NCBI GenBank assembly: GCA_022825505.1 | Contig: JAJDWR010000030.1 | Span: 39,169 to 103,168 of the forward strand | Source: Gammaproteobacteria bacterium | GTDB taxonomy: Bacteria > Pseudomonadota > Gammaproteobacteria > Steroidobacterales > Rariloculaceae | Length of the DNA: 64,000 nucleotides | Direction: 5' to 3' | Part shown: one piece after another, positions 1,356 through 24,496 of the stretch | Layout: each line of letters starts with the position of its first letter | Numbering within the stretch: the first letter of the stretch is position 1 | Position numbers and translations under genes: made by a program | The notes under the pieces: model-generated | What the model saw: the letters and a program-made list of their open reading frames with translations, nothing else | Told to the model about the DNA's origin: nothing | The model's database searches: none

Positions 1356-2375
1356 TTATTCCGGCGTTGCGAGTATGTCGTACATCTCGCCCACGAGGTT
1401 GGCGCGCCGCTCCTCGTAGAGCAGCCAGTCGCTGTAGTCCGCCAGCAGGATCGTTTCCTGCAGCGTTTCCCGGTCAAGGCCCTCGGCGACCCCTGCCATG
1501 ACATCGGACTCCAGGTCGCGCAGTAATCCGAGAAAACCGTTGACGTCGGCTTTCGTGCCCGCGTTGCCGTGCCCGGCAACCAAAATGTCGAAGTCCAGCG
1601 CCTCGACGGTTGCCAGCGCCGCCTCGTATTCATCCACCGTGTAGCCGCTCAACGTCCCCGGAAATCGTTGGGCGTGGAGGAAATCCACCGTAAACGCCGC
1701 CCGTTCATTCGGGAACAGGACAATTGTGGTATCGGCCGAGTGGGCCGCGCTGGGATGGTGCAACTCTACGGTGCTGTCGCCCAGGGTCAACATCATCTGC
1801 TCCGTGTAGGTGACGTCCAGCGGCACGGTGGCGGCGTTGATCTCCGCACCGCTCAGGCTGCCGTCCCCATCGGTGTCCATGCTGTCGAAGCTGTTCAGGT
1901 AGCCGCCGGCGGCTTCGCTCCGTTCCAGCGTGCCGTTGCCGTTTGCGTCGGAAAGCGCCGCATTGCTTGGCAGCCCGCCCTCCAGCCTCGCGGCGGTATT
2001 CTCGTGACCGACAAAGATGGCCGTGTCGGCGAAGACCTGCCCACCGGCCACATGGTCGGGATGGTGATGGCTGTAAATCACGTACTCCACTTCGGAACCG
2101 AAGCGGGCCGCCAGTTCGCCCTCGAGCCACTCGGCAAAATCCGCCCGCAAGGGATCGACGACGATGATGCCTTCGGTCGTCGCGAGAAAAACCGCGTTAT
2201 GCGTAGCCGTGCGCGCCTCGTAGAGGTTGCCCGTGACGTTGCGGATGGTGAACGGAGGCTCGGCCGATCCGTCGGTCTGCGAATCCTCCTGGATCCCGCA
2301 CGCGGTCAGCGCGAGAGTGAGGCAGGCGACCGGGAATATCGCCGCTGAATTGATTGACCGTTCTGTTGTCGACAT
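1356..2375 (-). CDS. exported MBL-fold metallo-hydrolase with inserted EF-hand pair (paralogue A, lipoprotein)
   Basis: HxHxDH motif SHHHPDHVAGG. EF-hand-like loops DANGNGTLERSE (1914..1949) and DTDGDGSLSGAE (1842..1877). Start moved to the ATG at 2373-2375, which has GGGAGA upstream and gives a lipobox signal peptide (ACLTLALTAC). The longer ORF to 2480 has no support. Confidence 0.85.
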   Translation of the reverse strand: MSTTERSINSAAIFPVACLTLALTACGIQEDSQTDGSAEPPFTIRNVTGNLYEARTATHNAVFLATTEGIIVVDPLRADFAEWLEGELAARFGSEVEYVIYSHHHPDHVAGGQVFADTAIFVGHENTAARLEGGLPSNAALSDANGNGTLERSEAAGGYLNSFDSMDTDGDGSLSGAEINAATVPLDVTYTEQMMLTLGDSTVELHHPSAAHSADTTIVLFPNERAAFTVDFLHAQRFPGTLSGYTVDEYEAALATVEALDFDILVAGHGNAGTKADVNGFLGLLRDLESDVMAGVAEGLDRETLQETILLADYSDWLLYEERRANLVGEMYDILATPE

Positions 2376-2513
2376 GGTTTGTCTCCCAAGTTGGGTGCCG
2401 GGCATTTCGTCGCAGCCACTTTTCAAAGAAGGTTCTTCAGGGCCGCCATCGAAATCGTGGCCCCGGATCGGCGCGGGCACGTTTCCCGGACCGGCGAGCG
2501 GGCGCGCACCGGA

Positions 2514-3146
2514 TCAGCGGGAGCGCGTACCGCGGATCAGCGAGCCGTCTTCGGCCCAGTCGTAGCGAATGTTCATGCCTTCTTCGTCGATGAATCCAAG
2601 GGACTGCTGGAACTGGACCTGGGGCGGATAATTCTTCGGCACCGTCGCCTCAACGATGTACAGCCGGGCGTCGTGCAGATAAATCCCGATGTAACTGCGG
2701 GATTCGTCCGGATTGGTGATGTTGAGCTGGTGTCCGGCCACGCGGTCCACGTGGTGCCAGGCGTCGTACGTGACCTCGCCGCCGCGCTCGCGGAATTGCC
2801 GTGCCGCGTAGGCAATGGACGCAAGCACGTCGATTCGCCAATAGGAGTAATTGACCGGCGAATCGGCTTCCGTGCTGTTGGTCCGTGCCAGATGGATGCG
2901 ATGCGAGTCCGTGTAGTCGATCACCGTCACCGAATAGGCGGCCGGACCCTCCCGGAACGAATACACGCGCCCGGGAAATACCGCGCCATACTCCGACGGC
3001 CAGGTGATGTCCCGTACTTCCGGTTCAACGGACTCCGGCAGGTTGATGGAAAAGAAATCGGTCGTGTTCTTGTAGTTGACCCAGTTCTGCGCCAGCAGCG
3101 TGCCTGCCGGAACGAGTGCCAGAACGGCCAGAAACAGCGTGCGCAT
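2514..3146 (-). CDS. hypothetical secreted protein
   Basis: ORF with a Sec signal peptide from the internal ATG at 3144-3146 (MRTLFLAVLALVPAGTLLAQ). I recognise no motif. Confidence 0.65.
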   Translation of the reverse strand: MRTLFLAVLALVPAGTLLAQNWVNYKNTTDFFSINLPESVEPEVRDITWPSEYGAVFPGRVYSFREGPAAYSVTVIDYTDSHRIHLARTNSTEADSPVNYSYWRIDVLASIAYAARQFRERGGEVTYDAWHHVDRVAGHQLNITNPDESRSYIGIYLHDARLYIVEATVPKNYPPQVQFQQSLGFIDEEGMNIRYDWAEDGSLIRGTRSR

Positions 3147-3363
3147 GGGTTCTGCCTGCGATAGTGCCAATCGTCGGATTGATTCTACCTGCTGTCGCCG
3201 GGGAGCCCAACTGCCGAACCGGCAGGATGGACCCGGCGCCAGGAACCTCAACATCCGACCCGGCGCTTCCGGCCCGCCCCGATCGGCCCGGCGCGACCGG
3301 CCTGCCGCGACCGGTCCGGCCCCCGCGGCCGGCCGTGCGAAATCGGGTCAGCCCACCCCGATG

Positions 3364-5170: not shown

Positions 5171-5533
5171 TTACAACCGCCTGGGGTACAGGTCGTAGTT
5201 GCTGTCCTGGACGGTGATCCGCCGGGTCTTCATCTCCAGCGTGCCGGGATTGGCATGACGGTTGCCGAGCATGGTAACCGTGTCGCCAACCTTGACGATG
5301 CCGTCGGCGAAGCCCGCTTGCCGGCTGCGGTCCGGCGGGCTCAGGACCACGTTCCACATCTCGCCATCCACGTCAACGGTCAGACGATCGTGTGGATTCC
5401 CGAGGTGCGTGTCGACTACTGTTCCGGTGAGGGTGAAATCCGCCGATGTGTAGCCGCCCCAGCCGTGATGCGCGAGTGCGCTGCCGGTCAACAGGCCAAA
5501 AACAATCGCTGCTGCTGCCAGGTATCTGGTCAT
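5171..5533 (-). CDS. exported stand-alone 'HH...NPH' module protein (DUF6152-like, function unknown)
   Basis: 120 aa. Signal peptide ends ALA, followed directly by HHGW. Later motifs LGNPHDRL and GDTVTM match six other copies in the window. Confidence 0.8.
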   Translation of the reverse strand: MTRYLAAAAIVFGLLTGSALAHHGWGGYTSADFTLTGTVVDTHLGNPHDRLTVDVDGEMWNVVLSPPDRSRQAGFADGIVKVGDTVTMLGNRHANPGTLEMKTRRITVQDSNYDLYPRRL

Positions 5534-5636
5534 CTCTGCTTCCTCCGCAAAGGGGTTTCAATGCGTTCCTTCTCTTCAGTCACCATTTATGAACTAAATC
5601 CTCGCGCGACGCAACTGTGCCGACGATCGGCCGCTG

Positions 5637-5663: not shown

Positions 5664-8600
5664 CTATTGAAGTTCCAGCAGCAGGTCCTGGGTTTCGAGC
5701 TGCATGCCAACCCGGGCGGGGATGGATGCGACCGTGCCGGGGCCTTCGGCGCGGATCAGCATCTGCATCTTCATCGCCTCGATGGTGAGCAGCGCGGTCC
5801 CCTTGTCGACGCCCTGGCCGGGCTTGACGCTGATTTCCACGACCTTGCCGGGCATGGGCGCGGCCACGTGGTTGGGATTGGATGGGTCGGCCTTGGGGTG
5901 TGCCGTCACGCTGGCCGTGGCCTGGCGATTCACCAGTTCGACCGTCCGCGGTTGGCCATTGAGTTCGAAGAACACGCGTTGCTCGCCGCGCTGGTCCACA
6001 TCGCTGACGGCCAGCAGGCGGATGACAAGCGTCTTTCCCCGCTCGATTTCCACCGCGATCTCTTCCTGGTTCTTGAGGCCGTGAAAGAAAATCGGCGTCG
6101 GCAGCGTACTGACGTCGGAATAGTTCCTGAGATGATCCGCAAACTCCTCGAAGACCCGCGGATAGAGCAGCCAGGATGAGAACTCCGTCTCGCTGACGCG
6201 GCGGCGGACGCGCTTTTCCGCCCGTTTGCGCTCGGTGTCAAGGTCCACGGGCGGCAGCGTTGCTCCGGGCCTTTCGGTCAGCGGTTCGCGCCCCTGGAGT
6301 ATTTTGCGCTGCAGTGCCTCAGGGAAGCCGCCTACGGGCTGACCCAAGTCGCCCCGGAATAACGACACCACCGATTCGGGGAAGGCGACTTCCTTGTCCG
6401 GATCGATCACGTCTTCGGCACTCAACCCGCCGGAGACCATGGCCAGCGCCATGTCGCCGACGACCTTGGAGGTCGGCGTGACCTTGACCACGTCTCCGAA
6501 CATCTCGTTGACTTCCGCGTAGCGGTCGGCTACCTCCGGCCAGCGATGGGCGATCCCCAGCGAGCGCGCCTGCTCGCGCAGGTTCGTGTACTGCCCGCCC
6601 GGCATGGCGTGACGGTAGACGTCCGCCGTTCCCGAACGAATTTCGCTCTCGAAACCCGAATAGTGCTCCCGCACCAGCTCCCAATAACGCGAGATCCTCC
6701 GCATTGCCGCCCGATTCAGCCCGGGGTCGCGTTCATGGCCGTGCAGCGCATCGACGATGGATCCCAGGTTGGGTTGCGAGGTCAGGCCGCTCATGGCGTC
6801 CATGGCGCCGTCGACGGCATCCACGCCGGCATCCACCGCCGCCAGCACCGCCGCCGCGCCGATGCCGCTGGTGTCGTGGGTGTGGAAGTGGATCGGAATG
6901 CCCACCTCCTGTTTGAGCGCCCGGACCAGGCGGCTTGCGGCAGCCGGCTTGCATACGCCCGCCATGTCCTTGATGCCGAGGATGTGAGCGCCCGCCTTCT
7001 CTAGTTCTCGCGCCATGCCGACGTAGTACGCCAGATCGTACTTGTTCGGCTCCGGCGCCAGCATGTCGCCGGAGTAGCAGATGGCGGCCTCGCAGAGCTT
7101 GCCCGATTCGAGCACGGCGTCCATGGCGATACGCATGTTCCCGACCCAGTTCAGCGAATCGAAAACCCTGAAAAGATCCACACCGCCTTCTGCAGCCTGC
7201 GCGACAAAGTGCTCTACCACGTTGTCGGGGTAGTTCTTGTAACCGACGGCGTTCGCCGAGCGCAGCAGCATCTGCAAGAGAATGTTGGGCGCACGCTTCT
7301 TCAATGCCGCGAGCCTTTCCCACGGGTCTTCCCTGAGGAATCGCATGGCCACGTCGAAGGTGGCGCCGCCCCAGCACTCGAGCGATAGCAGTTGCGGCAG
7401 GCGTTCGGCGTAGGCCGGAGCGATCCGCAGCAGGTCGTAACTGCGCATTCGGGTCGCCAGCAGCGACTGGTGGGCGTCGCGCATGGTGGTATCGGTCAGC
7501 AGTACGGCTTTCTGATCGAGCATCCAGCGGGCGAATCCCTCGGGACCCAGTCTGTCCAGTCGCTGTACGCTGCCGGGCGGACAGGTGCCTGAGTACTCCG
7601 GCACCGGCGCCGGCGTTCGGGCGCCGGCCTCGACGCGTCCGGTGACCTCCGGATTGCCATTGACGATGATTTCGGCAAGAAATTTGAGCAGGCGGCTGGC
7701 GCGGTCCCGCGGCTTTCGGAATTCGAATAGCTCTGGAGTCCGGTCGATGAATCGTGTCGTGTAATCTGCCTGCAGGAACCGCGGGTGGCGGATCACCTGC
7801 ACCAGGAAAGCCAGGTTGCTGGCCACGCCCCGGATACGGAATTCCCTCAGCGCCCGGACCATCCGGCTGACGGCTTCCCCGGGTCTTGGCGCCCAGGCGG
7901 TGACCTTGACCAGCAGGGAATCGTAATAGGGCGTGATCAACGCACCGGCGTAGGCGGTTCCTCCGTCAAGCCGTATCCCGAACCCCGATGCGCTGCGGTA
8001 GGTGCGGATGCGCCCGTAGTCGGGGATGAACTGGTTTTCCGGATCCTCGGTGGTGACCCGGCACTGCAGCGCGTGGCCGTTCAGGCGGATGTTCTTCTGG
8101 GTCAGCACGCCGCTGTCCGCGTCGCCGATGCGCGCGCCCCGGGCCAGGCATATCTGGGCCTTGACGATGTCGATGCCGGTCACTTCCTCGGTCACCGTGT
8201 GTTCCACCTGAACACGCGGATTGACTTCTATGAAATAGAACGCCCCGGTATCGGCGTCCATAAGGAATTCCACTGTGCCGGCGTTACGGTAACCGGCCGC
8301 GGCTGCCAGCCTGAGGGCGTGGCCGCAGAGCTCTTCGCGCTGCCCGTCGTCCAGATAGGGGGCCGGCGCGCGCTCCACGACCTTCTGGTTGCGCCGCTGC
8401 ACCGTGCAGTCGCGCTCGAAGAGGTGGACCAGGTTGCCGTGGGTATCGCCGAGGACCTGCACCTCCACATGACGGGCACGCTCCACCAGTTTCTCAAGGT
8501 AAACCTCGTCGTTGCCGAACGCCGCCAGCGCCTCGCGGCGCGCCACGGCGATATCCTCGCTCAGGCTTGCAGGGTCGCGAATCACCCGCATGCCGCGGCC

Positions 8601-9104
8601 GCCGCCGCCCCAACTGGCCTTGAGCATCAGCGGATAGCCCACGGCTTCGGCCATTTCCTTCGCAGCGTCGGGATCCTCAGGCAGCGGGTCCGTGGCCGGC
8701 ATCACCGGCACGCCCGCCGACTTCGCCAGTTCCCGTGCGCTCACCTTGTTGCCGACCTTGCGCATCACATCGGCCGGCGGGCCGATGAAGATCAGCCCCG
8801 CCTCGCTGCAGGCGTCGGCAAATTCGGGATTCTCGGAAAGGAAGCCGTAGCCCGGGTGGACGGCGTCGACCCTGGCTTCCCTGGCGACGCGCAGGATGGA
8901 TTGGATGTCCAGGTAGGCGCCAAGCGCTTGACCCGCTTCCCCCACCGGATAGCTCTCGTCGGCCTTGAACCGGTGCAGCGCGAATCGATCCTCGTCCGCG
9001 TAAATGGCGACCGTGCCGATACCCAGTTCCGTGGCCGCGCGCATCACGCGGATGGCGATCTCGCTGCGATTGGCGACGAGGAGCTTGTTGATTTTCCGGG
9101 ACAT
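5664..9104 (-). CDS. pyc: pyruvate carboxylase (single-chain, biotin-dependent)
   Basis: From the ATG at 9102-9104 (MSRKINKLLVANRSEIAIRVMRAA) this gives 1147 aa. Contains a biotin carboxylase ATP-grasp, a carboxyltransferase TIM domain, and the C-terminal biotinyl motif EAMKM. The ORF extension to 9536 has no homology-like features. Confidence 0.95.
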   Translation of the reverse strand: MSRKINKLLVANRSEIAIRVMRAATELGIGTVAIYADEDRFALHRFKADESYPVGEAGQALGAYLDIQSILRVAREARVDAVHPGYGFLSENPEFADACSEAGLIFIGPPADVMRKVGNKVSARELAKSAGVPVMPATDPLPEDPDAAKEMAEAVGYPLMLKASWGGGGRGMRVIRDPASLSEDIAVARREALAAFGNDEVYLEKLVERARHVEVQVLGDTHGNLVHLFERDCTVQRRNQKVVERAPAPYLDDGQREELCGHALRLAAAAGYRNAGTVEFLMDADTGAFYFIEVNPRVQVEHTVTEEVTGIDIVKAQICLARGARIGDADSGVLTQKNIRLNGHALQCRVTTEDPENQFIPDYGRIRTYRSASGFGIRLDGGTAYAGALITPYYDSLLVKVTAWAPRPGEAVSRMVRALREFRIRGVASNLAFLVQVIRHPRFLQADYTTRFIDRTPELFEFRKPRDRASRLLKFLAEIIVNGNPEVTGRVEAGARTPAPVPEYSGTCPPGSVQRLDRLGPEGFARWMLDQKAVLLTDTTMRDAHQSLLATRMRSYDLLRIAPAYAERLPQLLSLECWGGATFDVAMRFLREDPWERLAALKKRAPNILLQMLLRSANAVGYKNYPDNVVEHFVAQAAEGGVDLFRVFDSLNWVGNMRIAMDAVLESGKLCEAAICYSGDMLAPEPNKYDLAYYVGMARELEKAGAHILGIKDMAGVCKPAAASRLVRALKQEVGIPIHFHTHDTSGIGAAAVLAAVDAGVDAVDGAMDAMSGLTSQPNLGSIVDALHGHERDPGLNRAAMRRISRYWELVREHYSGFESEIRSGTADVYRHAMPGGQYTNLREQARSLGIAHRWPEVADRYAEVNEMFGDVVKVTPTSKVVGDMALAMVSGGLSAEDVIDPDKEVAFPESVVSLFRGDLGQPVGGFPEALQRKILQGREPLTERPGATLPPVDLDTERKRAEKRVRRRVSETEFSSWLLYPRVFEEFADHLRNYSDVSTLPTPIFFHGLKNQEEIAVEIERGKTLVIRLLAVSDVDQRGEQRVFFELNGQPRTVELVNRQATASVTAHPKADPSNPNHVAAPMPGKVVEISVKPGQGVDKGTALLTIEAMKMQMLIRAEGPGTVASIPARVGMQLETQDLLLELQ

Positions 9105-9339
9105 CGACTTCGGACGTGCGTGAACCGTGGCGCAGTATAGTGCATTGGACCGCGAATTCGATGTGACGGTCTGACCGCTCTGAACGATCGCCGGGAGGCG
9201 ACTGCTGAACGTGCGCGGGGAGAGTTTACGCAAGGAAAGTCTTGCGCGGTACCGGATCGCACCGTCACAATTCGCGGCACTTGAATCGGTCCGGGCAGCC
9301 GGGACGGAACTCCATGATGCGGAATTCGGCAACGCTTCG

Positions 9340-10539
9340 ATGGTAAGAAACCAAAGACGCAACCTGACGATCCTGTTTTTTTCGCAGGGCATACTCGGGG
9401 CGCAGATTCCCGTCAATTTCATCCTTGGCGGGCTGGCGGGCGCCTTGCTCGCCGGGAATCCCGCGCTGGCCACTTTGCCGATCTCGATCATCGTTCTGGT
9501 CGCAATGTTCGTCTCCCCCGGCGCGTCGCTGTTCATGGGCCGCTACGGGCGTCGCGCCGGGTTTCTTCTGGGAAGCGCTGCCGGGGCGGTGGGCGGCACG
9601 CTCGCCGTTCTCGCGCTGTTCGAAGGGCGGTTCGACTGGCTGTTGCTGGGCGCCGGATTCACCGGCGTGTTTCAGGCGTTCCAGGTGTTTTTCCGATTCG
9701 CGGCGGCCGACGCGGCGTCGGAGGAATTCAAGCCCAAGGCGATTTCCCTGGTACTGGGCGCCGGCCTGATCAACGCGATACTCGCCGGAGAGGTCGTGCG
9801 CCTGCTGGGCGATGCGCTGGATCCGGTGCCCTATGCAGGCGCGTACGCGGGCGTCATCGCGCTGAATTTCATCGGCGCCAGCATCGTGATGTTCCTGCGG
9901 ATCCCGAGGCCTCCGCGGCAATCCGAATCCGGCGGTGTCGCGCGCCCGCTAGGGGTTATTTTCAGGCAGCCCAGGGTCATCACGGCCGTGCTCTGTGCCA
10001 TGGTGAGCTACGCGGTGATGAATCTCGTCATGACATCAACTCCCCTGGCGATCGTTGGCAATGGATTTACCACCAACCATGCCGCGGACATCGTTCGCTG
10101 GCACGTCGTGGCCATGTTTGCGCCGAGCTTTGTCACCGGGCACATCATCGCCCGCGTCGGCCATCTGCCGGTCATCGGCACGGGATTGATGCTGCTCGGC
10201 GTCTGTTCGGCGATCGCGCTGACCGGCATGGATCTGCACCACTTCTATCTCGCGCTGGTGGCGCTGGGTGTCGGCTGGAACTTTGGTTTCGTCGGCGCCA
10301 CCAGCCTGCTCGCCTCGGCGCATACCCCCGAGGAGCAGGCGAAGGTCCAGGGCCTCAACGACTTCCTGGTATTCGGGCTGGTGGCATTTGCCTCGTTCAG
10401 TTCGGGCGCACTGCTCAACGCGTTCGGATGGACGGCGGTGCAGTTGGCAGTCCTGCCCAGCGTACTGGTCGCGCTGGCGGCCATCGCCTGGTACCGGCTG
10501 GTCCGTTCTCAGCAAAGAACGGCCGATACGCTGGCTTGA
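9340..10539 (+). CDS. MFS transporter
   Basis: About 12 hydrophobic segments, and the MGRYGRR loop typical of MFS. Start taken at the ATG at 9340 (MVRNQRRNLTILFF). The upstream part of the ORF is not hydrophobic. Confidence 0.8.
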   Translation: MVRNQRRNLTILFFSQGILGAQIPVNFILGGLAGALLAGNPALATLPISIIVLVAMFVSPGASLFMGRYGRRAGFLLGSAAGAVGGTLAVLALFEGRFDWLLLGAGFTGVFQAFQVFFRFAAADAASEEFKPKAISLVLGAGLINAILAGEVVRLLGDALDPVPYAGAYAGVIALNFIGASIVMFLRIPRPPRQSESGGVARPLGVIFRQPRVITAVLCAMVSYAVMNLVMTSTPLAIVGNGFTTNHAADIVRWHVVAMFAPSFVTGHIIARVGHLPVIGTGLMLLGVCSAIALTGMDLHHFYLALVALGVGWNFGFVGATSLLASAHTPEEQAKVQGLNDFLVFGLVAFASFSSGALLNAFGWTAVQLAVLPSVLVALAAIAWYRLVRSQQRTADTLA

Positions 10540-11598: not shown

Positions 11599-12735
11599 GT
11601 GCAGAACATGAACCGAATTTGCATCACCATCATTGCCTTTGGAATCGCCGCAGGCGCCTACGCGCATCATTCCGCTGCGCCGCATTTCGACATGGACAAT
11701 CCCGTAACGGTCGAAGGCGTCATCACCGAGCTCAGGCTGGTGAATCCGCACGCCTACGTGTATTTCGACGTGACCGACGACACCGGGGAGGTTGCCAACT
11801 GGCGTTGCGAGCTGGCCGGGGGAACAGGCATGAGACGGCGCGGCTGGACCGACGATTCCCTGGTGCCGGGCCAGGCGATTACCATGACCGGTGCGCCCGC
11901 CCGCCGCGAGGACCGCGTCTGCTATACGAACTTCATCGAATTCGAGGACGGCACCCGAATCGCCCGGAACGATCCTCCGCCGGGCTTCGAAACGGCTCCG
12001 CCGGCGGACGCTCCGGAAGCGCCGGAGACCTGGACGGCCTACCTGCCCAACGGTCAACCCAACCTCGGCGGCCCCTGGGTCCGGCAGGGGATGGGCGGCG
12101 GCATGGGGCCTCCTCCCGGGGGAGCGGCCGCGGGTCCGGGCGGAATGGGCCCGGCGCCGGGCGGCATGGCAGGCGGTGCGCCGGGAGGCGGGCGCCCGGC
12201 GCCCACCGAGGCCGGTCTGGCCGCGGCCGCGGATTACGAGCAGCCGTTCGACGATCCCGCCATACACTGTCACCCGGCGAACATCATCTTCGGCTTCACC
12301 CACGACAGTCATGTGAACGACATCTACCAGGCTGACGATACCGTCACGATCCAGTACGGCTACATGGATCTGGTCAGAACGGTTCACCTGGACCGGACGG
12401 AACACCCGGACGACATCGTGCCCAGCGTCGGCGGCCACTCCATCGGCCGGTGGGAGGGCGACGTGCTGGTGGTCGACACGGTGGGATTCGAGCAGGGCAT
12501 CGTGTTTCCGCTCGGCGACGGACTCATGCACAGCGCGGACATGCAGGTGACCGAGCGGTTCGAGGTCAGGGACGAAGGCCAGACCCTGGTGCGCGCCTAC
12601 GTCGCTCACGATCCGGCTTTCCTGCAGACCGACTGGGTCGGAGAGAGTGTCTTTCTGCGCACGAGCGAGCCCTACAGACCTTACAACTGCACGGAGCTGA
12701 GCGGCGACAACAACCGCCGGCCGGCGCCGGAGTAG
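11599..12735 (+). CDS. exported two-domain protein: HH...NPH module + Met/Gly/Pro linker + two-Cys 'GRWEGD' domain
   Basis: Signal peptide ends AYA, followed by HHSA. Motifs LVNPHAYV, HCHPANI...GGHSIGRWEGDVLVVDT...YNCTE. Alternative start at the ATG at 11608. Confidence 0.85.
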   Translation: MQNMNRICITIIAFGIAAGAYAHHSAAPHFDMDNPVTVEGVITELRLVNPHAYVYFDVTDDTGEVANWRCELAGGTGMRRRGWTDDSLVPGQAITMTGAPARREDRVCYTNFIEFEDGTRIARNDPPPGFETAPPADAPEAPETWTAYLPNGQPNLGGPWVRQGMGGGMGPPPGGAAAGPGGMGPAPGGMAGGAPGGGRPAPTEAGLAAAADYEQPFDDPAIHCHPANIIFGFTHDSHVNDIYQADDTVTIQYGYMDLVRTVHLDRTEHPDDIVPSVGGHSIGRWEGDVLVVDTVGFEQGIVFPLGDGLMHSADMQVTERFEVRDEGQTLVRAYVAHDPAFLQTDWVGESVFLRTSEPYRPYNCTELSGDNNRRPAPE

Positions 12736-12778: not shown

Positions 12779-13855
12779 GTGATTCGGGTGGCTGTAGCGT
12801 CGCGGGACCGGCAAGCTGATCCCCTGCGGAGGGCGGGACCCTTCATCTCGCGCATTCTGAGCGTGCTGACGCTTTCAGTCGCGCCGGCGGTCGCCGACGC
12901 CCATCATTCCTTCGCGATATACACTGACGAGATCACCGAAATCGAGGGTGAACTGGTCGACATTCACTGGGGCAATCCCCATGTGCACCTGACGGTTCGC
13001 GTTGCCGATTCGGGCCAGGACGCGGATTGGACGCTGGAGACCGGCAATCCCTATGTTCTGCAGCGCAGAGGGTTGCCGCAGGAACTTTTCCGCCGGGGCG
13101 ACACGATCAGAGCCGCCGGCCGGATTCACCGGGCGCAGGCCGCGCAGCTCTGGCTGCACAATTTGATGCTCGGTGACGGGCAGGAACTGCTGATGATCGC
13201 CGGCGTCGAGCCCCGTTGGAATGAAGTCGCCCTGGGCGGGGACGGCAGCGGCGTACCCGTCGAGGATGCAATCGCCCAGGATCGCGGTCTGTTCCGGACC
13301 TGGAGCCGGCCTGTGCTGCGGCCGATCGCCTACGGTGAGGGCCTTCCTTACCGGCGGGAACCTGGTTCAGGTGGTGCGGAGTGGCTCGCGCGAATGGACG
13401 AGTTCGCCGCCCGCTGCGAATCGGTGGGCATGCCCGGGGTGATGGCGACTCCCTATCCGATCGAGTTCCGCGACAATGGGTCATGGATCCGCTTGATCGG
13501 GTTTTCCAACAATGCGCTGATCGACCGCACCATCCATATGGAGAGTGCTGCGGCCGCAGCGGTACGCGAACCGAGCCGCTTCGGCCATTCGACAGGCCGC
13601 TGGGCAGCCGCCAACCGGCTCGAGGTCACGACGACGCATATAGACTGGCCTTATTTCGATGACAGCCTGGGGACACTCCAGAGCGATCTGGTCGAGACGC
13701 ATGAAACCTTTATCCTGAGCGAAGATCAGCGGCGTCTGGACTACGAAATGATCGTTTCCGATCCGGAAACGTTTACCCAGCCCGCCACGGCCATGGAAAC
13801 CCATTGGCTTGCGCTGGGGGAGTCGCTCGCCGAGCCGACGCATTGCGTGGAGTAA
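12779..13855 (+). CDS. exported two-domain protein: HH...NPH module + two-Cys 'GRW' domain
   Basis: Signal peptide ends ADA, followed by HHSF. Motifs WGNPHVHL, ARCESVGMP...FGHSTGRW...THCVE. The GTG start at 12779 is uncertain. Confidence 0.8.
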   Translation: MIRVAVASRDRQADPLRRAGPFISRILSVLTLSVAPAVADAHHSFAIYTDEITEIEGELVDIHWGNPHVHLTVRVADSGQDADWTLETGNPYVLQRRGLPQELFRRGDTIRAAGRIHRAQAAQLWLHNLMLGDGQELLMIAGVEPRWNEVALGGDGSGVPVEDAIAQDRGLFRTWSRPVLRPIAYGEGLPYRREPGSGGAEWLARMDEFAARCESVGMPGVMATPYPIEFRDNGSWIRLIGFSNNALIDRTIHMESAAAAAVREPSRFGHSTGRWAAANRLEVTTTHIDWPYFDDSLGTLQSDLVETHETFILSEDQRRLDYEMIVSDPETFTQPATAMETHWLALGESLAEPTHCVE

Positions 13856-14008: not shown

Positions 14009-15553
14009 ATGGACATGTGGAGACTACTGGTTTGCGCAGTTGTTTTATTGATCGGATCGGCTTGTTCGCAGTCCGATGGCACATCGGAAATGGCTTCGGA
14101 TGCCGAAGTCCAGCCTGCAGCCGTTGGAGACTCGGCGTCCCCGGAAGCCCTGACGACCTATGGCGAAACCGATTTTGAAGCTACGGGCTCCCCCGAGGCC
14201 TATCCCACTTTCCTCCGGGGCCTGCTGCAATTGCACAACTTCGAATTCGAGGACGCCCGGGCGAGCTTTGTCGAAGCGCAGCAAATCGACCCCGAGTTCT
14301 ACATGGCCTACTGGGGCGAAGCGCTCTCCCACAAGCAGCCACTCTGGAACCGGGAGGACCTCCCGGCGGGTCGGGCAGCATTGGCGAAGCTGGCTCCCAC
14401 CGCCGCGGAACGGCTGGAACTTGCGCCGACCGAGCGCGAGCGTGCCTACATGGCTGCGGCCAACCGGCTCTTCTCCGAAGACGGCACGGAGCTTGAGATC
14501 GAGACGGACTACGCCGAGATGCTCGGAGGGATCTACGAACGCTGGCCGGACGATCTCGACGCCGGTGCGCTGTACGCTCTGGGGATCCTGACCACCAGCC
14601 ACAACGGCCGCGAGTTCGACAAATACATGCGGGCAGGGGCGATAACCGAGGAAATCCTCGACAAGAATCCGCTCCACCCCGGCGCGCTGCATTACAACAT
14701 CCACAGCTTCGACGACCCGATCCATGCGCCGCTGGGCCTGCGTGCGGCGCGCGTCTACTCCGACGTCGCGCCGGATGCCGTACATGCCCTGCACATGCCG
14801 TCCCATATCTTCCTGGCGCTGGGCGATTTCGAGGGTACCCGGGACCTCAATCGGCGTGCCTACAACGTCTCTGTGGAGCGTAGCTCGGGACAGGACGGCG
14901 TGCTGTTCCGCAACGAGGCCTACCATACCCATAGCTGGCTGCTGTATGCGCTGGTCCAGTTGCACGAACTGGACGAAGCCAGGGAGATGCTGGATTTCCT
15001 GGCGAGCCAGATCGAGAAGGGCGACGACATGGCGCCTGGGCAGCTCATCATGGGCCGGGCGTTCTACATGCTGGAAACCGGCGCCTGGGACGATCCGCTG
15101 ATGGACCTGGAGGTCGACCTGGGTGGGGTCAGCCCCATGCACCTTGCCACGGAACACTACATCCGTGCCCGCCAGGCTCTGGCGCAGAATGACCTGGAGT
15201 CGATGGAGCGGCACGTGAACGAAATTGCCGTTCCGGATAGTTCCGGTCCGGCGGCGCGGGATGCGGTACCGCGTGTGCTGAAGGACATCGGCCAGGGGCA
15301 ACTGTTGATTGCCCAAGGCAATGGCGACGACGGCATGGAACTGCTGAAGGCCGCGGCAGAGCTGGAGCACTCCCTGCCACCGTTCATCGGCCCACCGGTC
15401 ATCGTGCAGCCCGCGGGCGAGGCGGCCGGCGATGCCTTGCGGGCGATGGGCGACGATGAGGAGGCCGCCCGTTACTACAACATGACCCTGGAGCGCGCCG
15501 TCAACAAGACACGCTCGCAAATTGCGGTCGACGCGATTCGCGCAGGCGGCTGA
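14009..15553 (+). CDS. TPR-like lipoprotein, function unknown
   Basis: 514 aa. Lipobox LLIGSAC. Helical-repeat composition with a His-rich core (HYNIHSFDDPIHAP...HALHMPSHIF). Confidence 0.75.
   Translation: MDMWRLLVCAVVLLIGSACSQSDGTSEMASDAEVQPAAVGDSASPEALTTYGETDFEATGSPEAYPTFLRGLLQLHNFEFEDARASFVEAQQIDPEFYMAYWGEALSHKQPLWNREDLPAGRAALAKLAPTAAERLELAPTERERAYMAAANRLFSEDGTELEIETDYAEMLGGIYERWPDDLDAGALYALGILTTSHNGREFDKYMRAGAITEEILDKNPLHPGALHYNIHSFDDPIHAPLGLRAARVYSDVAPDAVHALHMPSHIFLALGDFEGTRDLNRRAYNVSVERSSGQDGVLFRNEAYHTHSWLLYALVQLHELDEAREMLDFLASQIEKGDDMAPGQLIMGRAFYMLETGAWDDPLMDLEVDLGGVSPMHLATEHYIRARQALAQNDLESMERHVNEIAVPDSSGPAARDAVPRVLKDIGQGQLLIAQGNGDDGMELLKAAAELEHSLPPFIGPPVIVQPAGEAAGDALRAMGDDEEAARYYNMTLERAVNKTRSQIAVDAIRAGG
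15490..15553 (+). repeat. direct repeat copy 1 (3' end of TPR-lipoprotein gene including stop)
   Basis: 58/64 nt identical to 17474..17537 by manual alignment. Encodes ERAVNKTRSQIAVDAIRAGG*. Confidence 0.85.
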
Positions 15554-17602: not shown

Positions 17603-18565
17603 ATGGACCTGCGCCAGATCCGATACTTCGTCGCTGTTGCCGAATCGAAAAGCCTGACGCGGGCGGTCGACCGGCTGGATGTTGCGCAGCCGGCGCTGAG
17701 CCTCAACATCAAGAGCCTCGAGCAGGAACTGGACGCACAGTTGTTCAACCGCAGCCAGCGCGGCATGGAACTGACCGACGCCGGCGGCGAGTTCCTGAAT
17801 CACGCCTACGGCATTCTTCGCCAGGTCGCCCAGGCTCAGCGCAGTGTCAACGACCTGGAGAGGGACCCGCACGGCAGCGTGGCCGTGGCCATGCCCCCGA
17901 GCCTCAGTCACGCACTCACGGTGCCGCTGTTCAATTACGTAAACGACCGGTTTCCGCGAATCGAACTGGATCTGGAAGAAGGGTTGCAGGCCAGCGTGCT
18001 GCCTGCCTTCGAACGCGGACAGTTCGACCTGCTCGTCCATTTCGATATTCCGAGGTCGAAGTCCCGGACCATCACCCCCATTTTTCGCGAACATCTGTAT
18101 CTGATCAGTCCGCTGGAAAATGGCGGTGAATCGGATGGATCGGACGTTTCCTTCCGCGAACTGGCCCGGCATCCGATCCTCAAGCCGTCGGACCGCAATA
18201 CCCTTGGCGCGCTGTTGGCGCGGCATGCCGCGAAGCAGGGTATCGAATTGAAGGGTCCCCCGATTCATACGCCGTACCATCAGACGATGCTGTTGATCAA
18301 GGCCGGAATCACCAGTGCCGTGTTGCCGTATTCCGCGGTCCACGACCTGGTGGGCAAGTCGGTCACCGCGCGCAAGATCGTACGGCCCGCGATTCGGCGG
18401 GACGTGGGCATCATCGCGCAGGCCGACCGTGCGCAGTCGTTTGCGACCCAGCAAGTCGCGCAGGCGATCAAGTCTGTCGTGACGCAACTGTGGCAATCGC
18501 GCAAGTGGCGCGGGGACTTGCTGATCGAGTCGGATGACGGGGCGGATGCCGCAATTGCGAGGTGA
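17603..18565 (+). CDS. LysR-family transcriptional regulator
   Basis: MDLRQIRYFVAVAESKSLTRAVDRLDVAQPALS HTH plus a LysR substrate-binding domain. ATG at 17603. Confidence 0.9.
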   Translation: MDLRQIRYFVAVAESKSLTRAVDRLDVAQPALSLNIKSLEQELDAQLFNRSQRGMELTDAGGEFLNHAYGILRQVAQAQRSVNDLERDPHGSVAVAMPPSLSHALTVPLFNYVNDRFPRIELDLEEGLQASVLPAFERGQFDLLVHFDIPRSKSRTITPIFREHLYLISPLENGGESDGSDVSFRELARHPILKPSDRNTLGALLARHAAKQGIELKGPPIHTPYHQTMLLIKAGITSAVLPYSAVHDLVGKSVTARKIVRPAIRRDVGIIAQADRAQSFATQQVAQAIKSVVTQLWQSRKWRGDLLIESDDGADAAIAR

Positions 18566-18569
18566 CGTT

Positions 18570-19292
18570 ATGAAAGTGCTGTTATCTGTCGCGTTGGCGA
18601 TTTGTTTGTTCGGCGCACTCCCGGCCGATGCCCAGCAGGGCTCGGATTCCGGAATGGACTTCCTGGGCGTCTACGCGCCACCGATCTTCGATGGCGGCGG
18701 TCCGCCCCGCCGCCAGCCGGAGATCATCCCGCTCTCCGAGGCCGGCCGCCAAGCGGTGGCGGATTACGATCCGGTGCTCGACAACCCGAGACTCCAGGAT
18801 GACTGCGCGCCGGAATTCATGCCAAGGCTCCTGTGGACCGGTAACCCCATCGAACTCCGCCAGGAAGACGGCGGCACGCTGATCATTCACTACGAACGGG
18901 GAGACACGTACCGTTACGTCGCCATGAACGGCGAGCCGCCGCCGGCTGACCGGGAAAATGCGCCTCTCGGTTACTCGGTCGGGCGCTGGGACGGCGATAT
19001 CCTTGTCATCGAAACGTCCCACATGGTGGGAGAACCCATTTCGGGCGGCTCACAGCCCCTCAGCCTTGAGGCCCGGGTCACGGAACGGTACTGGCGGGAA
19101 CCGGGCTCCATGGATCTGCAACTGGAGCTTGAGATCGATGACCCGGTGTATTACACGGAGACCTTCACCATGGGACGGGAATTCATCTGGGCGCCCGAAG
19201 AGGAGATTCGGGACTGGACCTGCGTCGATTTCGGGGACAGCACCGAACCGCCCGACATCGAGGAATTTCTGCGCATGCTGGAGGAACTCTAG
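18570..19292 (+). CDS. exported two-Cys 'GRWDGD' domain protein (no HH module)
   Basis: Signal peptide MKVLLSVALAICLFGALPADA. Motifs DDCAPEFMP...LGYSVGRWDGDILVIET...WTCVD. The start is 4 nt after the LysR stop. Confidence 0.8.
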   Translation: MKVLLSVALAICLFGALPADAQQGSDSGMDFLGVYAPPIFDGGGPPRRQPEIIPLSEAGRQAVADYDPVLDNPRLQDDCAPEFMPRLLWTGNPIELRQEDGGTLIIHYERGDTYRYVAMNGEPPPADRENAPLGYSVGRWDGDILVIETSHMVGEPISGGSQPLSLEARVTERYWREPGSMDLQLELEIDDPVYYTETFTMGREFIWAPEEEIRDWTCVDFGDSTEPPDIEEFLRMLEEL

Positions 19293-19317: not shown

Positions 19318-21204
19318 ATGAGGTCTTTGAAACTTCTTCCGTTTCCGTTGCTGGCCTTGCTTCCGTATGCAGTGCACGCTCACCACGGAACCGTTACCAA
19401 CCCGCTCCTGTACCAGTCGGAACTCGTCGAGCTTCAGGGTGAGATCGTCGAGGTCTTTTGGCGCAACCCGCACACACGTGCAAAGCTGAGCGTTGTCGAC
19501 GAATTCGGCGCCGAAACGCTCTGGGAGATCGAATTCGGACCGAATCCCCGGCGCCTGGAAAACATGGGGCTCGCCCCCCACCATCTTCTCGGTACCGTTC
19601 GCGTGGCAGGCTTTGTGGCAAGGAACAATCCGCAGTCCCTCGGCATGCTGCACATCCTGATGCCCGACGGCAGGGAATACGTGCAGGGCGCCGGCCGCGA
19701 GATGCTCTGGTCGAACGACCGGCTGGTAGAACAGCCCGAACGTATCGATCCGGAAAAGGCGGTAACGGATGCCCTCGAAGCGGACGGAATATTTCGAAGT
19801 TGGGATACCCATTCCGGACCGTGGTTTGCCGGCGCTTTGCAGGAATTGGACTACACGGAGCGCGGCGCCGAACTCAATGCCGCATACGATCCGCTGACGG
19901 ACAATCGCCAGCTTCACTGCGAGCATGGCATGCCGGATGCGATGTTCGATCCGCGGCCGATGGGAATCTTTCGGGAAGGTAACGATATCCGCATCCAACT
20001 GGTCCAGTACGACATTCGGAGACTGATCCACATGGGTGAACCGGACCCGAATCCCGAGCCGTCCAACGTGGGCTACTCGGTGGGGAGGTGGGAAGGCGAT
20101 ACGCTGTTGGTTACCACCACACAAGTCGACTGGCCCTATTACTCCGACTACGGCACGCCGCAGTCGGATCAGGCTCGCTACGAAGAGAGCTTCCGGGTAG
20201 CCGAGGTAGACGGTGAGCCGGTGTTGCATTACGCGATCACGATCAGCGACCCGGTGGTATTCCCGGAGCCGCTGCATTTCGAGACCACCCGCACGCCGCT
20301 GCCCGGATACGAGTTCAGGCCCTACGACTGTACGGCCGAGTGGGAGGACTTCGCCCGGGCGGACGAATCAGAAATTCGTGCGGCAGTGGCGGCAATGGTG
20401 GACGAGTTTCTGAACGACAGGCCGGTTCAGCCCTTCGCCCCCGAGTTGTCCCTGGAAGAGGCGTATCGCTGGCAGGATGAACTGGTGGAGATGCTGCGCC
20501 CGACCCTGGGTGAAGTGGTGGGCTACAAGACCGGCGGCCATAGTCCGGGACCCGCCAACCCCAATTTCCCGGCCGGCGGAATCAGGGCGCAATTGCTTTC
20601 CGGCATGTTTCTGGAGAACGGCGCCGCCGTCCGCCTGGACGAAATGGGGGCGGTCAGCTTCCTGGAAGCCGATTTCGCGTTTCGCGTGGGCAGTGCCGAC
20701 ATCAATGACGCCGAGTCGGATCTGGAGATTCTTGCCGGTCTCGATGCCGTCGTCCCGTTCGCCGAGATTCCGGACCCGACGTCCGAGCCGGACGAGAACG
20801 GCATGATCAGGGGCATCGTCGGAAACATGTCGACACGCATCGCCCTGGCCGGCGAGCCCGTCGCCATCGGCTCGACGGAAGAGTGGCTGCAACGCCTGAA
20901 CAACATGGAGTATGCGGTGCTCGACGAGAACGGGACGGTCATCCAACGGAGGTCGATGGCGGACTGGTACCGGCCCATCGACGCTGTTCGATGGCTCAGG
21001 GACCACTTGCAGTCCCACGGCAAGGACCTGATGCCGGGGCAACTCCTCTCATTGGGTAATCTCGGCATCAATCGGCCGTTCTTCGACGGAACCGCGCGGG
21101 GCGACGTCTACACCGGTGACCGGTACCACGTCGAGTACTACGGCCTGCGCGACGACGGCGCGCCTGCCACGGTGACCATCAACATCATTCGCGGCGGCGA
21201 CTGA
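19318..21204 (+). CDS. exported three-domain fusion: HH...NPH module + two-Cys 'GRWEGD' domain + MhpD/HpcG-like hydratase/decarboxylase (FAH-superfamily) domain
   Basis: Signal peptide ends VHA, followed by HHGT. Motifs WRNPHTRA, HCEHGMP...VGYSVGRWEGDTLLVTT...YDCT. The C-terminal ~280 aa align by eye with 2-keto-4-pentenoate hydratase (EEAYRWQ..VVGYKTGG, FLEADFAFRV, VVPFAEIPD, PIDAVRWLRDHL..GQLLSLGNLG). Confidence 0.85.
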   Translation: MRSLKLLPFPLLALLPYAVHAHHGTVTNPLLYQSELVELQGEIVEVFWRNPHTRAKLSVVDEFGAETLWEIEFGPNPRRLENMGLAPHHLLGTVRVAGFVARNNPQSLGMLHILMPDGREYVQGAGREMLWSNDRLVEQPERIDPEKAVTDALEADGIFRSWDTHSGPWFAGALQELDYTERGAELNAAYDPLTDNRQLHCEHGMPDAMFDPRPMGIFREGNDIRIQLVQYDIRRLIHMGEPDPNPEPSNVGYSVGRWEGDTLLVTTTQVDWPYYSDYGTPQSDQARYEESFRVAEVDGEPVLHYAITISDPVVFPEPLHFETTRTPLPGYEFRPYDCTAEWEDFARADESEIRAAVAAMVDEFLNDRPVQPFAPELSLEEAYRWQDELVEMLRPTLGEVVGYKTGGHSPGPANPNFPAGGIRAQLLSGMFLENGAAVRLDEMGAVSFLEADFAFRVGSADINDAESDLEILAGLDAVVPFAEIPDPTSEPDENGMIRGIVGNMSTRIALAGEPVAIGSTEEWLQRLNNMEYAVLDENGTVIQRRSMADWYRPIDAVRWLRDHLQSHGKDLMPGQLLSLGNLGINRPFFDGTARGDVYTGDRYHVEYYGLRDDGAPATVTINIIRGGD

Positions 21205-21280: not shown

Positions 21281-22612
21281 GTGAGTGTTGAACGATCCGG
21301 CGGCCTTCAGGCGGCTGACAGTGCTTACATGACCGGATTCGGTAACGAGCACGCTACTGAAGCCGAGGCCGGTGCACTGCCCATCGGCCGCAGTTCGCCG
21401 CAGAAGGCACCGCTGGGGCTCTATGCGGAAAAGTACAGCGGCACCGCGTTCACCGCGCCAAAGGCGAGGAATTTCCGCTCGTGGTTCTACCGGATCCGGC
21501 CGTCCGTGGCGACGGTCGGGTTCGAGGCCGTCGGCCATTCACGGCTGCTGAATGCCCCGGTCGGCGGTGCGGCGACGCCGCCGGACCCGATGCGATGGCA
21601 TCCCTTCCCGTTGCCCGACGAGCCGGCGGATTTCGTCGATGGCCTGTTCACCCTGGCCGCCTGCGGCGACGCGCACGCCCAGATCGGCGCCGGCGTGCAT
21701 ATCTATTGTGCGAACCGTTCCATGGACGACCGGTATTTCTACGACTGCGATGGCGAACTGCTGATCGTTCCCCAGGCCGGGACGCTGCGGATCCATACCG
21801 AGTGCGGCGTGCTGGACGTGCCGCCAAAGTCGATCGCGGTGATTCCCCGGGGACTCAAGTTTCGGGTGGAACTCACCGATGGGACCGCCCGCGGTTATGT
21901 CTGCGAGAACTACGGAGCCTTGCTCGAACTGCCGGAGCGCGGGCCGATCGGATCGGACTGTTTGGCCAACAGCAGAGACTTTGAGGCGCCGGTCGCCGCC
22001 TACGAGGATCGCGACGGGGACTTCGAATTGCTCTGCAAGCTGGACGGGCAGCTATACGTTTCCCGCGTGAAGCACTCGCCGCTGGACGTGGTGGCATGGC
22101 ATGGCAGCCTCTATCCCTACCGATACGATCTGGATCGATTCAATGTCATCGGGTCCGTGAGTTACGACCACCCCGATCCCTCGATCTTCACCGTCCTCAC
22201 ATCCCAATCGGATTCGCCGGGTACGGCGAACGTGGATTTCGTCATTTTCCCGCCCCGGTGGCTGACGATGGAGGACACCTTTCGCCCGGCCTGGTACCAC
22301 CGCAACGTCATGTCGGAGTACATGGGCCTGATCACCGGCGTTTACGATGCCAAGACCTCGGGCGGATTCACGCCCGGCGCGTCGAGCCTGCACAACTGCA
22401 TGGTGCCCCACGGTCCCGACGGGGAAGCCTACGAGCGGGCCACCACCATGGAACTGAAGCCCGAACGCCTGCGGGATACGATGGCGTTTATGTTCGAGTC
22501 GCGCTACCTGATCCGACCGACTCGGCTTGCGCTGGACGCGCCGGAGCACCAGTTGGACTACCCGGGCGTCTGGGACGGGCTCAGGCGGCATTTCGGGCAG
22601 CCCGGTAGTTGA
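21281..22612 (+). CDS. hmgA: homogentisate 1,2-dioxygenase
   Basis: 443 aa. [45 protein letters not shown] is the canonical HmgA N-terminus. GTG start with AGGAGA 6 nt upstream. Confidence 0.95.
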
Positions 22613-22679
22613 GTCGGGCAGCCTGGTAGTTGTGTCGGGTGGCCTGGTAGTTGTGTCGGGTGGCCCGATCATTGAGGCG
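22598..22679 (+). repeat. 21-bp tandem repeat, 3 good units plus 1 degenerate unit, overlapping the hmgA stop codon
   Basis: Units: cagcccggtagttgagtcggg / cagcctggtagttgtgtcggg / tggcctggtagttgtgtcggg / tggcccgatcattgaggcg. The hmgA TGA (22610-22612) sits inside unit 1. Confidence 0.9.
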
Positions 22680-22883
22680 AACGGGCACAGGGGACGCGCA
22701 CCGGTAGTTCGACGTTGCCGAACCGCCCCGGCTGACTGACGTTTAACGAAACCAAAAGACACTATTAGGCTCGCGGGGTGTTACGGGAGTGGCCAAGCGG
22801 ATATTGTTCGGTGCTGCTCGGCTTGGGTAGTCCAATGCCCGCGGCAACTGCGAGAATGCCGACCGAGCGAATTGGAGGTAAAC

Positions 22884-24395: not shown

Positions 24396-24496
24396 GGTCC
24401 GACCGCCTGGAGCCGTTGTGTCTGGTTCCAGTCGCCGAAGAGCCTTTATCTGTACAAGCCATCCATTTCACCTATTCAAAATAACCGGGAGAGCGC

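Follow-up and report, generated by a model that had tools for sequence, protein, structure and literature searches.

What does a small exported protein module do with two histidines that become its first residues once the signal peptide is removed? The question is raised by a 64,000-nucleotide stretch of a Gammaproteobacteria genome (family Rariloculaceae; contig JAJDWR010000030.1, positions 39,169 to 103,168), hereafter called the window. The open reading frame (ORF) at 5171-5533 on the minus strand encodes one of seven copies of a module of the Pfam family DUF6152, and a sequence-only reading of this DNA had suggested that the exposed His-His pair (HH) and a downstream (N/S)PH motif form a metal site resembling the copper histidine brace. 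We report here that the full histidine set of the family depends on the mature N-terminus, that the module is confidently predicted to adopt an oligonucleotide/oligosaccharide-binding (OB) fold, and that it has a near-obligate exported partner. A mononuclear metal site is the interpretation that we tentatively prefer.

A six-frame motif scan of the window found exactly seven ORFs in which a Sec-type presequence ends at HH and (N/S)PH follows 22-27 residues on; they are numbered w1 to w7 in order of position. All seven reach the gathering threshold of Pfam PF19649 (DUF6152), which is 27 bits (30.9-77.2 bits, E = 2.8e-7 to 1e-21). This excludes chance resemblance and bears out the family assignment of the sequence-only reading; no family besides DUF6152 was found in Pfam for the module of these ORFs. 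Hidden Markov models (HMMs) of the whole module and of the module without both motifs each recovered the same seven window copies and no eighth. A small residue stands at the predicted cleavage site, directly before HH, in every copy.

The bare module w1 has 120 residues (ALA/HHGW, the slash marking the predicted cleavage; Pfam E = 3.8e-8, 33.8 bits). In most of the other copies the module is joined to a second domain resembling fatty-acid-binding proteins (FABP), for which a partner HMM was built as described below. On the plus strand w2 (11599-12735; AYA/HHSA; Pfam E = 1e-21) consists of the module, a Gly/Pro-rich linker and the FABP-like domain (378 residues; partner HMM E = 1.6e-53), and w3 (12779-13855; ADA/HHSF; Pfam E = 3.3e-13) of the module and the FABP-like domain (358 residues; partner HMM E = 8.7e-43). 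The largest copy, w4 (19318-21204, plus strand; VHA/HHGT; Pfam E = 2.8e-7), carries in addition a hydratase-like domain (628 residues; partner HMM E = 3.9e-48). Module and FABP-like domain are again joined in w5 (47196-48206, minus strand; ASG/HHSF; 336 residues; Pfam E = 4.7e-18; partner HMM E = 6.8e-43) and in w7 (52040-53086, plus strand; ASA/HHNF; 348 residues; Pfam E = 4.5e-15), the fused protein that was used for modelling. In w6 (48445-49032, plus strand; AAS/HHSF; 195 residues; Pfam E = 6.3e-17) the module is followed by a short Cys-containing tail that gave no match to the partner HMM.

The positions and strands of the seven ORFs and the HH and NPH contexts that had been read from the DNA were all correct, including the SPH variant in w5. 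The distance from HH to NPH had been put at about 25-40 residues and needs revision, to the 22-27 found in the window and the 24 found in most of the family. The second domain of about 200 residues, fused in five of the seven copies, had been overlooked. The window is syntenic with a related genome (L086) that is complete at 5.03 Mb; there the orthologue of w2 (P0144) is 97% identical and that of w3 has 343 residues. Since the presequence of w3 is unusually long (41 residues), its true start probably lies some 15 codons further downstream. Orthologues of w6, likewise of 195 residues, occur in two further related genomes (L082 and L084).

The copy at 5171-5533 is a bare module, as had been noted, with a mature length of 99 residues rather than about 95. 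Its predicted Sec signal peptide of 21 residues (5471-5533, minus strand; MTRYLAAAAIVFGLLTGSALA) has a basic n-region, A-L-A at positions -3 to -1 and no lipobox Cys, and the best 10-residue Kyte-Doolittle mean of its hydrophobic core is 2.59. In the predicted mature protein, His1 and His2 are read from codons CAT CAC at 5465-5470 and Asn25-Pro26-His27, the NPH motif, from AAT CCA CAC at 5390-5398, both on the minus strand; NPH lies in the β1-β2 loop of the model described below. Two further conserved blocks had been proposed: G-D-x-h-T is present in w1 (GDTVT) and W-x-h-E is absent from it (WNVV). A strong Shine-Dalgarno sequence, GGAGGA, occurs at 5541-5546, 7 nt 5' of the ATG. The orthologue of w1 is 92% identical and sits in the same pyruvate carboxylase / Lrp / alanine dehydrogenase synteny; because the codon differences between the two are mostly synonymous (23 synonymous, 10 non-synonymous), w1 is a real gene under purifying selection. 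It is also the least typical of the seven copies, an orphan without a partner domain in cis and without the Glu49 of the family, and with an HH-to-NPH spacing of 22 residues.

Signal-peptide cleavage was judged by the -3/-1 rule combined with n- and h-region features, and by these the predicted cut falls directly before HH in all seven window copies. In 228 homologues with a full presequence the same placement, which the sequence-only reading had proposed, holds throughout. The residue before HH is Ala in 224 of these and Gly in four; all but two have A, V, L, T, S or G at position -3. The presequence has a median length of 22 residues, with Lys or Arg in the n-region of 224 of the 228. Export as a lipoprotein or through the Tat system was rejected, as there is no lipobox Cys and a loose twin-arginine pattern occurs in just 8 of 240 homologues examined.

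Conservation was followed through a large family. A profile search gave 2,987 relatives among the candidates scored, and an exhaustive HMM search of 1.84 billion cluster representatives gave 18,169 family clusters, defined at 50% identity, at E ≤ 1e-3 and 11,474 at E ≤ 1e-10. The 120 best bare modules all contain HH and xPH, and the spacing is 24 residues in 116 of them, which favours a defined geometry over a loose tail. Fused proteins have both motifs in 117 of 120 cases. Two of the three exceptions start at an internal Met just past the HH of a window paralogue and the third has a different N-terminus; all three look like miscalled starts. The motifs are likewise found together in 146 of 150 diverse representatives at 50% identity.

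To avoid circularity, an HMM blind to the motifs was built from the region after NPH and used to search all ORF segments of the window and of 80 genome loci. These loci come from other genomes, of Acidobacteriota (especially Bryobacterales, Terriglobia and Vicinamibacterales) and Gammaproteobacteria, and had been scanned with a 127-sequence alignment. HH and xPH were present upstream in 121 of 128 matches, and the remaining seven are cut by a contig end or a frame break. Pro and His do not vary within xPH, and Asn is 97% conserved there. The sole intact variant of His1 is ALA/NH in P0494, where a free amine followed by His2 remains, and no extra residue separates the cleavage site from HH in several hundred sequences. 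In this very large family HH and xPH are thus, in effect, invariant.

Proteins with two or three modules in tandem (P0361, P0368, P0383, P0387, P0395, P0400, P0455 and P0479) show what happens when a module lies away from the N-terminus. Wherever a recognisable signal peptide followed by HH opens the protein, the first module always has A/HH and NPH. HH and the xPH histidine do not occur together in any of the nine internal modules: in four HH remains but the xPH histidine is gone (NPR, KPR, or no motif at all), in three the reverse is seen, and two have neither. The full set thus survives only in modules whose HH can start the mature protein. Although the sample is small, this pattern is the strongest evidence obtained here that HH and NPH act together and that a free N-terminus matters. 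In the four internal modules that retain HH the string HHSY persists despite the lost NPH histidine and the absence of a preceding signal peptide.

The structure of mature w1 was predicted with AlphaFold2 using 126 homologues. The model has a mean predicted local distance difference test (pLDDT) value of 91.4 and a predicted template modelling (pTM) score of 0.83, and consists of β1 (residues 7-22), β2 (29-34), β3 (37-42), an α-helix (46-51), β4 (64-72) and β5 (79-87). A Foldseek comparison with the PDB returned 85 matches at E ≤ 1e-3 with OB domains first; the top matches were the anticodon-binding OB domain of LysRS and Stn1/Ten1 (E about 1e-4, template modelling (TM) score about 0.6). The confident prediction for the DUF6152 module is thus an OB-fold, a five-stranded Greek-key barrel with a helix between β3 and β4. 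Neither single-sequence nor profile queries of PDB sequences gave a significant match for the module or its partner domain, and NCBIfam has no family for either.

In the w1 model the NPH motif occupies the β1-β2 loop, with its histidine two residues ahead of β2. The family Glu, which is 96% conserved, is the last residue of β3, the hairpin partner of β2, and so would probably adjoin the NPH histidine. In a model of fused w7, isolated β-bridges involve residue 8 and the NPH Asn; these are compatible with an N-terminal segment that packs beside NPH.

A second conserved feature of the family is the company that the module keeps. Five of the seven window proteins (336-628 residues) have in common a second domain, marked by EPS..G.S.GRW..L.V.T motifs and an invariant pair of Cys. 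In the 80 loci the module is usually bare, at about 130 residues, and an exported protein of about 270-285 residues goes with it. The corresponding BLAST cluster spans 51 loci and lies immediately downstream on the same strand 39 times; an HMM of the partner family matches 74 of the 80 loci. These separate partner proteins share homology with the C-terminal domains fused in the window copies (E = 2e-12), so that module and partner stand in a Rosetta-stone relationship. The window itself also contains a stand-alone partner gene of 252 residues, directly upstream of w4 (18534-19292, plus strand; partner HMM E = 4.8e-39), whose product matches the C-terminal domains of w2, w4, w5 and w7 in BLASTP searches (E = 5e-10 to 6e-15). 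No Pfam family was found for this protein or for the partner domain in general. The module is therefore almost always paired with an exported FABP-like partner, as an adjacent gene or as a fusion.

The partner carries a signal peptide of its own, a DGKPDLSG(I/V)W segment and an invariant Cys pair. Arg, Glu and Asp residues are invariant or nearly so, His is not conserved, and a G-x-W motif occurs in 55-56 of 58 sequences. The AlphaFold2 model of mature w7 (pLDDT 89.7, pTM 0.87) comprises both domains, and the high pTM points to a defined interface between them. Its C-terminal domain is built from one strand, a helix and then eight antiparallel strands, a secondary structure that fits the calycin barrel with its meander of 8-10 antiparallel strands and helical lid. 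Foldseek matched the N-terminal domain of this model to OB-folds and the C-terminal domain best to CRABP2, FABP3 and CRBP1. For CRABP2/FABP the match has E about 4e-4, a TM score of just about 0.5 on the target and a root-mean-square deviation of about 7 Å; at the level of the fold only, the partner looks like an FABP/calycin-like β-barrel. Folds of the FABP/calycin type hold small hydrophobic or amphipathic ligands.

Other partners occur as well. In some relatives, a gene A (347 residues; module and FABP-like domain) lies beside a gene B (321-351 residues; its own signal peptide and a hydratase-like domain). The window copy w4 is an in-frame fusion of A and B with the junction near 20355 and the signal peptide of B lost; the two-gene source is seen at 6001-8065 of L084. 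An assembly chimera was ruled out for w4, since the same fusion, of 630 residues, is present in the complete genome L086 (17558-19450). The C-terminal domain of w4 shows weak HpaH/DmpE matches (E = 6e-9), a distant resemblance to HpaH/MhpD hydratases; it reached 35.8 bits against TIGR02312, for which the cut-off is 351.5, and gave no Pfam match.

A separate, abundant class of about 400 residues, in which a signal peptide, HH and the module precede a hydratase-like domain as in w4, makes up 64 of 120 matches. Its members (P0258, P0279, P0316 and about 60 more clusters) are labelled '2-keto-4-pentenoate hydratase' by the Joint Genome Institute and have weak HpaH/DmpE similarity and no Pfam match. 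An exported domain resembling the fumarylacetoacetate hydrolase (FAH) fold is unusual in itself. A further protein of 498 residues (L082, 8143-9639, minus strand) combines the module with NHL repeats. From the FABP-like, hydratase-like and NHL fusions it follows that the module is a portable N-terminal unit serving several exported domains.

The modules stand in a catabolic genomic context. Next to w5 and w6 lie two divergent TonB-dependent receptors, 44% identical paralogues with Plug and TonB_dep_Rec_b-barrel domains, at 41147-44035 (plus strand) and 44199-46958 (minus strand). A third receptor (53963-56812, minus strand) has a G+C content at third codon positions of 0.68, below that of the genes around it; after it comes a PepSY_TM membrane protein (53124-53852, minus strand), and both are convergent with w7. 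Such an arrangement of receptor and PepSY_TM protein is typical of pairs that take up metals or siderophores. The stretch at 53.9-57 kb is poor in ORFs and had looked non-coding, a possibility that was rejected because it encodes this third receptor at slightly lower third-position G+C. The window also holds a sulfatase and a homogentisate pathway cassette. In the related genome L082, four DUF6152 genes, one of them encoding the protein with NHL repeats, lie within 6 kb, beside genes for a TonB-dependent receptor, the ring-cleaving LigAB, BKACE, DUF3500 and a short-chain dehydrogenase. Apart from the partner, no conserved third gene was found among 119 neighbours of the modules; the commonest extra families there were TonB-dependent-receptor-like proteins (7, about 8%), FliD (4), pyrroloquinoline quinone (PQQ) dehydrogenase (3) and metallo-β-lactamase (MBL)-fold proteins (3), and the FliD neighbours probably reflect lineage synteny.

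With these findings in hand, we put forward the following interpretation tentatively, at slightly less than an even chance: DUF6152 would be an exported OB-fold with a mononuclear metal site, acting with a ligand-holding partner in a 1:1 ratio, and its paralogues would have diversified for imported organic compounds. Signal peptidase would create the mature N-terminus on which this periplasmic site depends. The site would comprise His1, through its free α-amine and imidazole, His2 and the histidine of the NPH loop, which would have to converge; the near-invariant Glu ending β3, Asp9 or both would probably supply a carboxylate. One metal ion would be bound, with Cu(II) favoured on Irving-Williams grounds and Ni, Zn and Fe possible. 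Copper would be the likeliest metal on chemical grounds (PMC10952591). The module would act with a second exported domain, encoded by an adjacent gene or fused at the C-terminus, that is usually the FABP/calycin-like barrel and in other subfamilies the hydratase-like or NHL domain. The His-His site might then be the common reactive or cofactor-holding element, and the partner might hold a small hydrophobic or amphipathic ligand. Many paralogues occur in catabolic islands beside TonB-dependent receptors, which suggests a substrate-diversified periplasmic step in which imported organic compounds are bound or processed. Of the four refuting conditions set by the sequence-only reading, three were addressed wholly or in part, cleavage and invariance among them; neither these nor the added comparison of internal copies refuted the metal-site interpretation.

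Several observations weigh against it. The first 10 or so residues of the module are modelled with lower pLDDT, about 77. In a canonical OB-fold the start of β1 and the β1-β2 loop are at opposite ends of the barrel, so that the N-terminal 6-12 residues must fold back for the site to form. The family alignment contains no conserved Met or Cys in the module. Asp9 is missing from five of the seven window copies and Glu49 from w1, so these carboxylates cannot be essential ligands. Genomic context gives no pointer to copper: among the 119 neighbours there is no enrichment of CopC/CopD, multicopper oxidases, Zn/Ni transporters or other metal-handling genes. In the window no metal riboswitch or other Rfam element was found, nor any Fur/Zur/CueR-like box, the latter being a weak negative as the consensus sequences are enterobacterial. 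Seven paralogues in 64 kb would also be unusual for metal homeostasis.

In an unlikely but credible alternative, no metal is involved. Here the OB-fold would bind an anionic or polar ligand, such as a sugar acid, a phosphate or sulfate ester, an oligosaccharide or a carboxylate, with the histidines serving as hydrogen-bond donors or as general acid/base. OB-folds classically bind oligosaccharides and oligonucleotides at the β2-β3-β1/β2-loop face, which is where NPH, the conserved Trp and the Glu sit. The catabolic context, with its TonB-dependent receptors, sulfatase and ring-cleavage genes, would suit such a ligand, and so would the lack of metal-related genes among the 119 neighbours and of regulatory sites in the window. 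Side-chain roles of this kind would, however, tolerate residues before HH, and none are seen in the several hundred sequences; the decay of the histidine set in internal modules also argues against them.

By analogy with tissue inhibitors of metalloproteinases (TIMPs), the free His-His N-terminus may instead insert into the partner and complete or block a metal or active centre there, the module being a cofactor arm or a regulator of diverse partners and not itself a metal binder; we consider this clearly unlikely. It would fit a module whose fused or neighbouring partners are of at least three unrelated types (FABP-like, hydratase-like and NHL), a partner whose Glu, Asp and Arg are invariant or near-invariant and whose His are not conserved, and the fixed interface indicated by the high pTM of the w7 model. 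Hydratases of the FAH fold use a divalent metal held by carboxylates, and MBL-fold genes lie beside some modules. Yet no metalloenzyme is known among FABP-like barrels, orphan modules, w1 for one, are conserved although they have no partner in cis, and the opposed loss and retention of the module's own NPH histidine and HH are left unexplained unless NPH belongs to the same site.

A more specific form of the metal-site interpretation is decidedly improbable: DUF6152 as a new and very large class of periplasmic mononuclear copper proteins, forming with the partner a two-component or fused copper oxygenase or peroxygenase. The brace-type site on the OB-fold would consist of the His1 amine and imidazole and the NPH histidine, to which His2 or Glu might be added. 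Its substrates would be hydrophobic or aromatic compounds held by the FABP-like barrel, which Acidobacteriota and Gammaproteobacteria of soil and sediment import by way of TonB-dependent receptors.

Very unlikely is a shuttle for haem, another tetrapyrrole or a metallophore, in which the calycin-like barrel holds the macrocycle downstream of TonB-dependent receptors and the N-terminal His is an axial ligand. Some calycin barrels, such as nitrobindins and nitrophorins, do bind haem, the window has three TonB-dependent receptors and a PepSY_TM protein, and receptor-like genes are the commonest extra neighbour at roughly 8%. Conserved genes for haem oxygenase, haem ABC transporters or siderophores are, however, absent among the 119 neighbours, seven paralogues per 64 kb and fusions to hydratase-like and NHL domains fit poorly, and an axial His need not be residue 1. 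That HH at +1/+2 only guides processing by signal peptidase or onward sorting in the envelope, and belongs to no functional site, is barely credible: its position is strictly tied to the cleavage site, but His-His figures in no known Sec sorting rule, four internal copies keep it with no signal peptide in front, and the invariant NPH 24 residues away and the reciprocal loss of HH and the NPH histidine in internal copies would be left unexplained.

Returning to the preferred metal site, its layout can be compared with that of known systems. In histidine-brace proteins (lytic polysaccharide monooxygenases (LPMOs) AA9-AA17, CopC/PmoF1, PmoB/AmoB and X325/Bim1, and YcnI with a mono-histidine brace) removal of the signal peptide makes His residue 1 and a distal His is conserved, and DUF6152 has the same layout with a conserved Glu and Asp in addition. 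A brace binds one copper ion, its distal imidazole joining the N-terminal amine and imidazole in T-shaped 3N coordination; in DUF6152 the invariant NPH histidine is the candidate for the distal role. In CopC and X325 a carboxylate occupies the fourth coordination position (PMC10952591). The brace proteins are β-sandwiches of the Ig/fibronectin-like type, whereas DUF6152 is predicted to be an OB-fold and has no relationship to them in Pfam or in PDB sequence searches. Unlike them, it has an invariant adjacent His2, a near-obligate FABP-like partner and no copper genes nearby. The analogy with the histidine brace thus holds for the sequence layout, and the OB-fold excludes membership of the LPMO, CopC or PmoB families.

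The nearest structural analogies are TIMP, HypC and CusF, none of which is a sequence relative. The N-terminal domain of TIMP is a secreted OB-fold that needs an exact mature N-terminus, from which the α-amine and carbonyl of residue 1 chelate metal, and in this it is like DUF6152. It differs in being eukaryotic, with Cys1 and a disulfide framework, and in that the metal belongs to the target enzyme; DUF6152 has His1 and no conserved Cys, and there is no TIMP among the top 50 Foldseek matches of the w1 model. CusF and HypC are small bacterial OB-folds that hold metal: periplasmic CusF binds Cu(I)/Ag(I) through Met2His with a Trp cap, and cytoplasmic HypC holds Fe with its N-terminal Cys and a distal His. 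In DUF6152 neither Met nor Cys is conserved, and Pfam gave no match to CusF or HypC. The partner as modelled resembles the FABP, CRABP and CRBP calycins in its predicted order of βA, a helical segment and eight more antiparallel strands, and in G-x-W in the first strand. It differs from them in lacking sequence similarity, in being exported and larger, and in its invariant disulfide pair and DGKPDLSG(I/V)W N-terminal segment.

The literature searched contained no paper that names DUF6152 and none that links a histidine brace with an OB-fold, and recent histidine-brace papers are silent on the family. The OB-fold assignment, the near-obligate FABP-like partner with its fusions, and the histidine set that is complete only at the N-terminus appear to be new.

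Further features of the window were recorded. Three exported MBL-fold paralogues, 36-39% identical, lie at 1356-2480 (minus strand), 39760-40779 (plus) and 49039-50148 (plus); two of the three show weak EF-hand-like matches in an insert. The last begins 7 bp past w6, and MBL genes near modules elsewhere account for 3 of the 119 neighbours. Between w4 and a gene for a thiamine pyrophosphate (TPP) enzyme stands the cassette at 21281-26503 (plus strand), with homogentisate 1,2-dioxygenase, aldehyde dehydrogenase, fumarylacetoacetase and a LysR regulator. As the w4 orthologue or the corresponding gene pair directly precedes the TPP enzyme gene in L086 and L084, the cassette looks like an insertion.

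A Bat/MoxR-type operon at 58550-63973 (minus strand) comprises a MoxR-like AAA ATPase cut by the window end, DUF58, a protein with a BatA N-terminal domain, a 653-residue protein without a Pfam family and DUF4159. Apparently exported proteins without a Pfam family are encoded at 2514-3254 (minus), 37043-38107 (plus), 38137-38877 (plus), 14009-15553 (plus; a sub-threshold TPR match only) and 56983-58545 (minus). Homologues of the same length as the unannotated exported genes of the island occur in related genomes (355 and 246 residues in L082, 511 residues in L084 and L086), so these genes are conserved. The longest ORFs of pyruvate carboxylase (5664-9536, minus strand; 1,290 residues) and of an MFS transporter (9211-10539, plus strand) overlap by about 325 nt; the carboxylase orthologue in L086 has 1,146 residues, which places the start in the window about 144 codons downstream of the first in-frame start.

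DUF6152 has been known just as a catalogued domain of no known function, although it spans Acidobacteriota, Gammaproteobacteria and other soil and sediment bacteria, with many copies per genome inside catabolic islands. Whatever the identity of the metal, the Rosetta-stone pairing, the OB-fold assignment and the incomplete histidine sets of internal modules make the question of its function directly testable. If the His-His/NPH metal site is real, it would have no precedent, either as a histidine-brace-like centre on an OB-fold or as one with a dedicated FABP-like partner. It would widen the structural range of histidine-brace chemistry and would suggest that the turnover of organic matter includes a periplasmic step not recognised so far.

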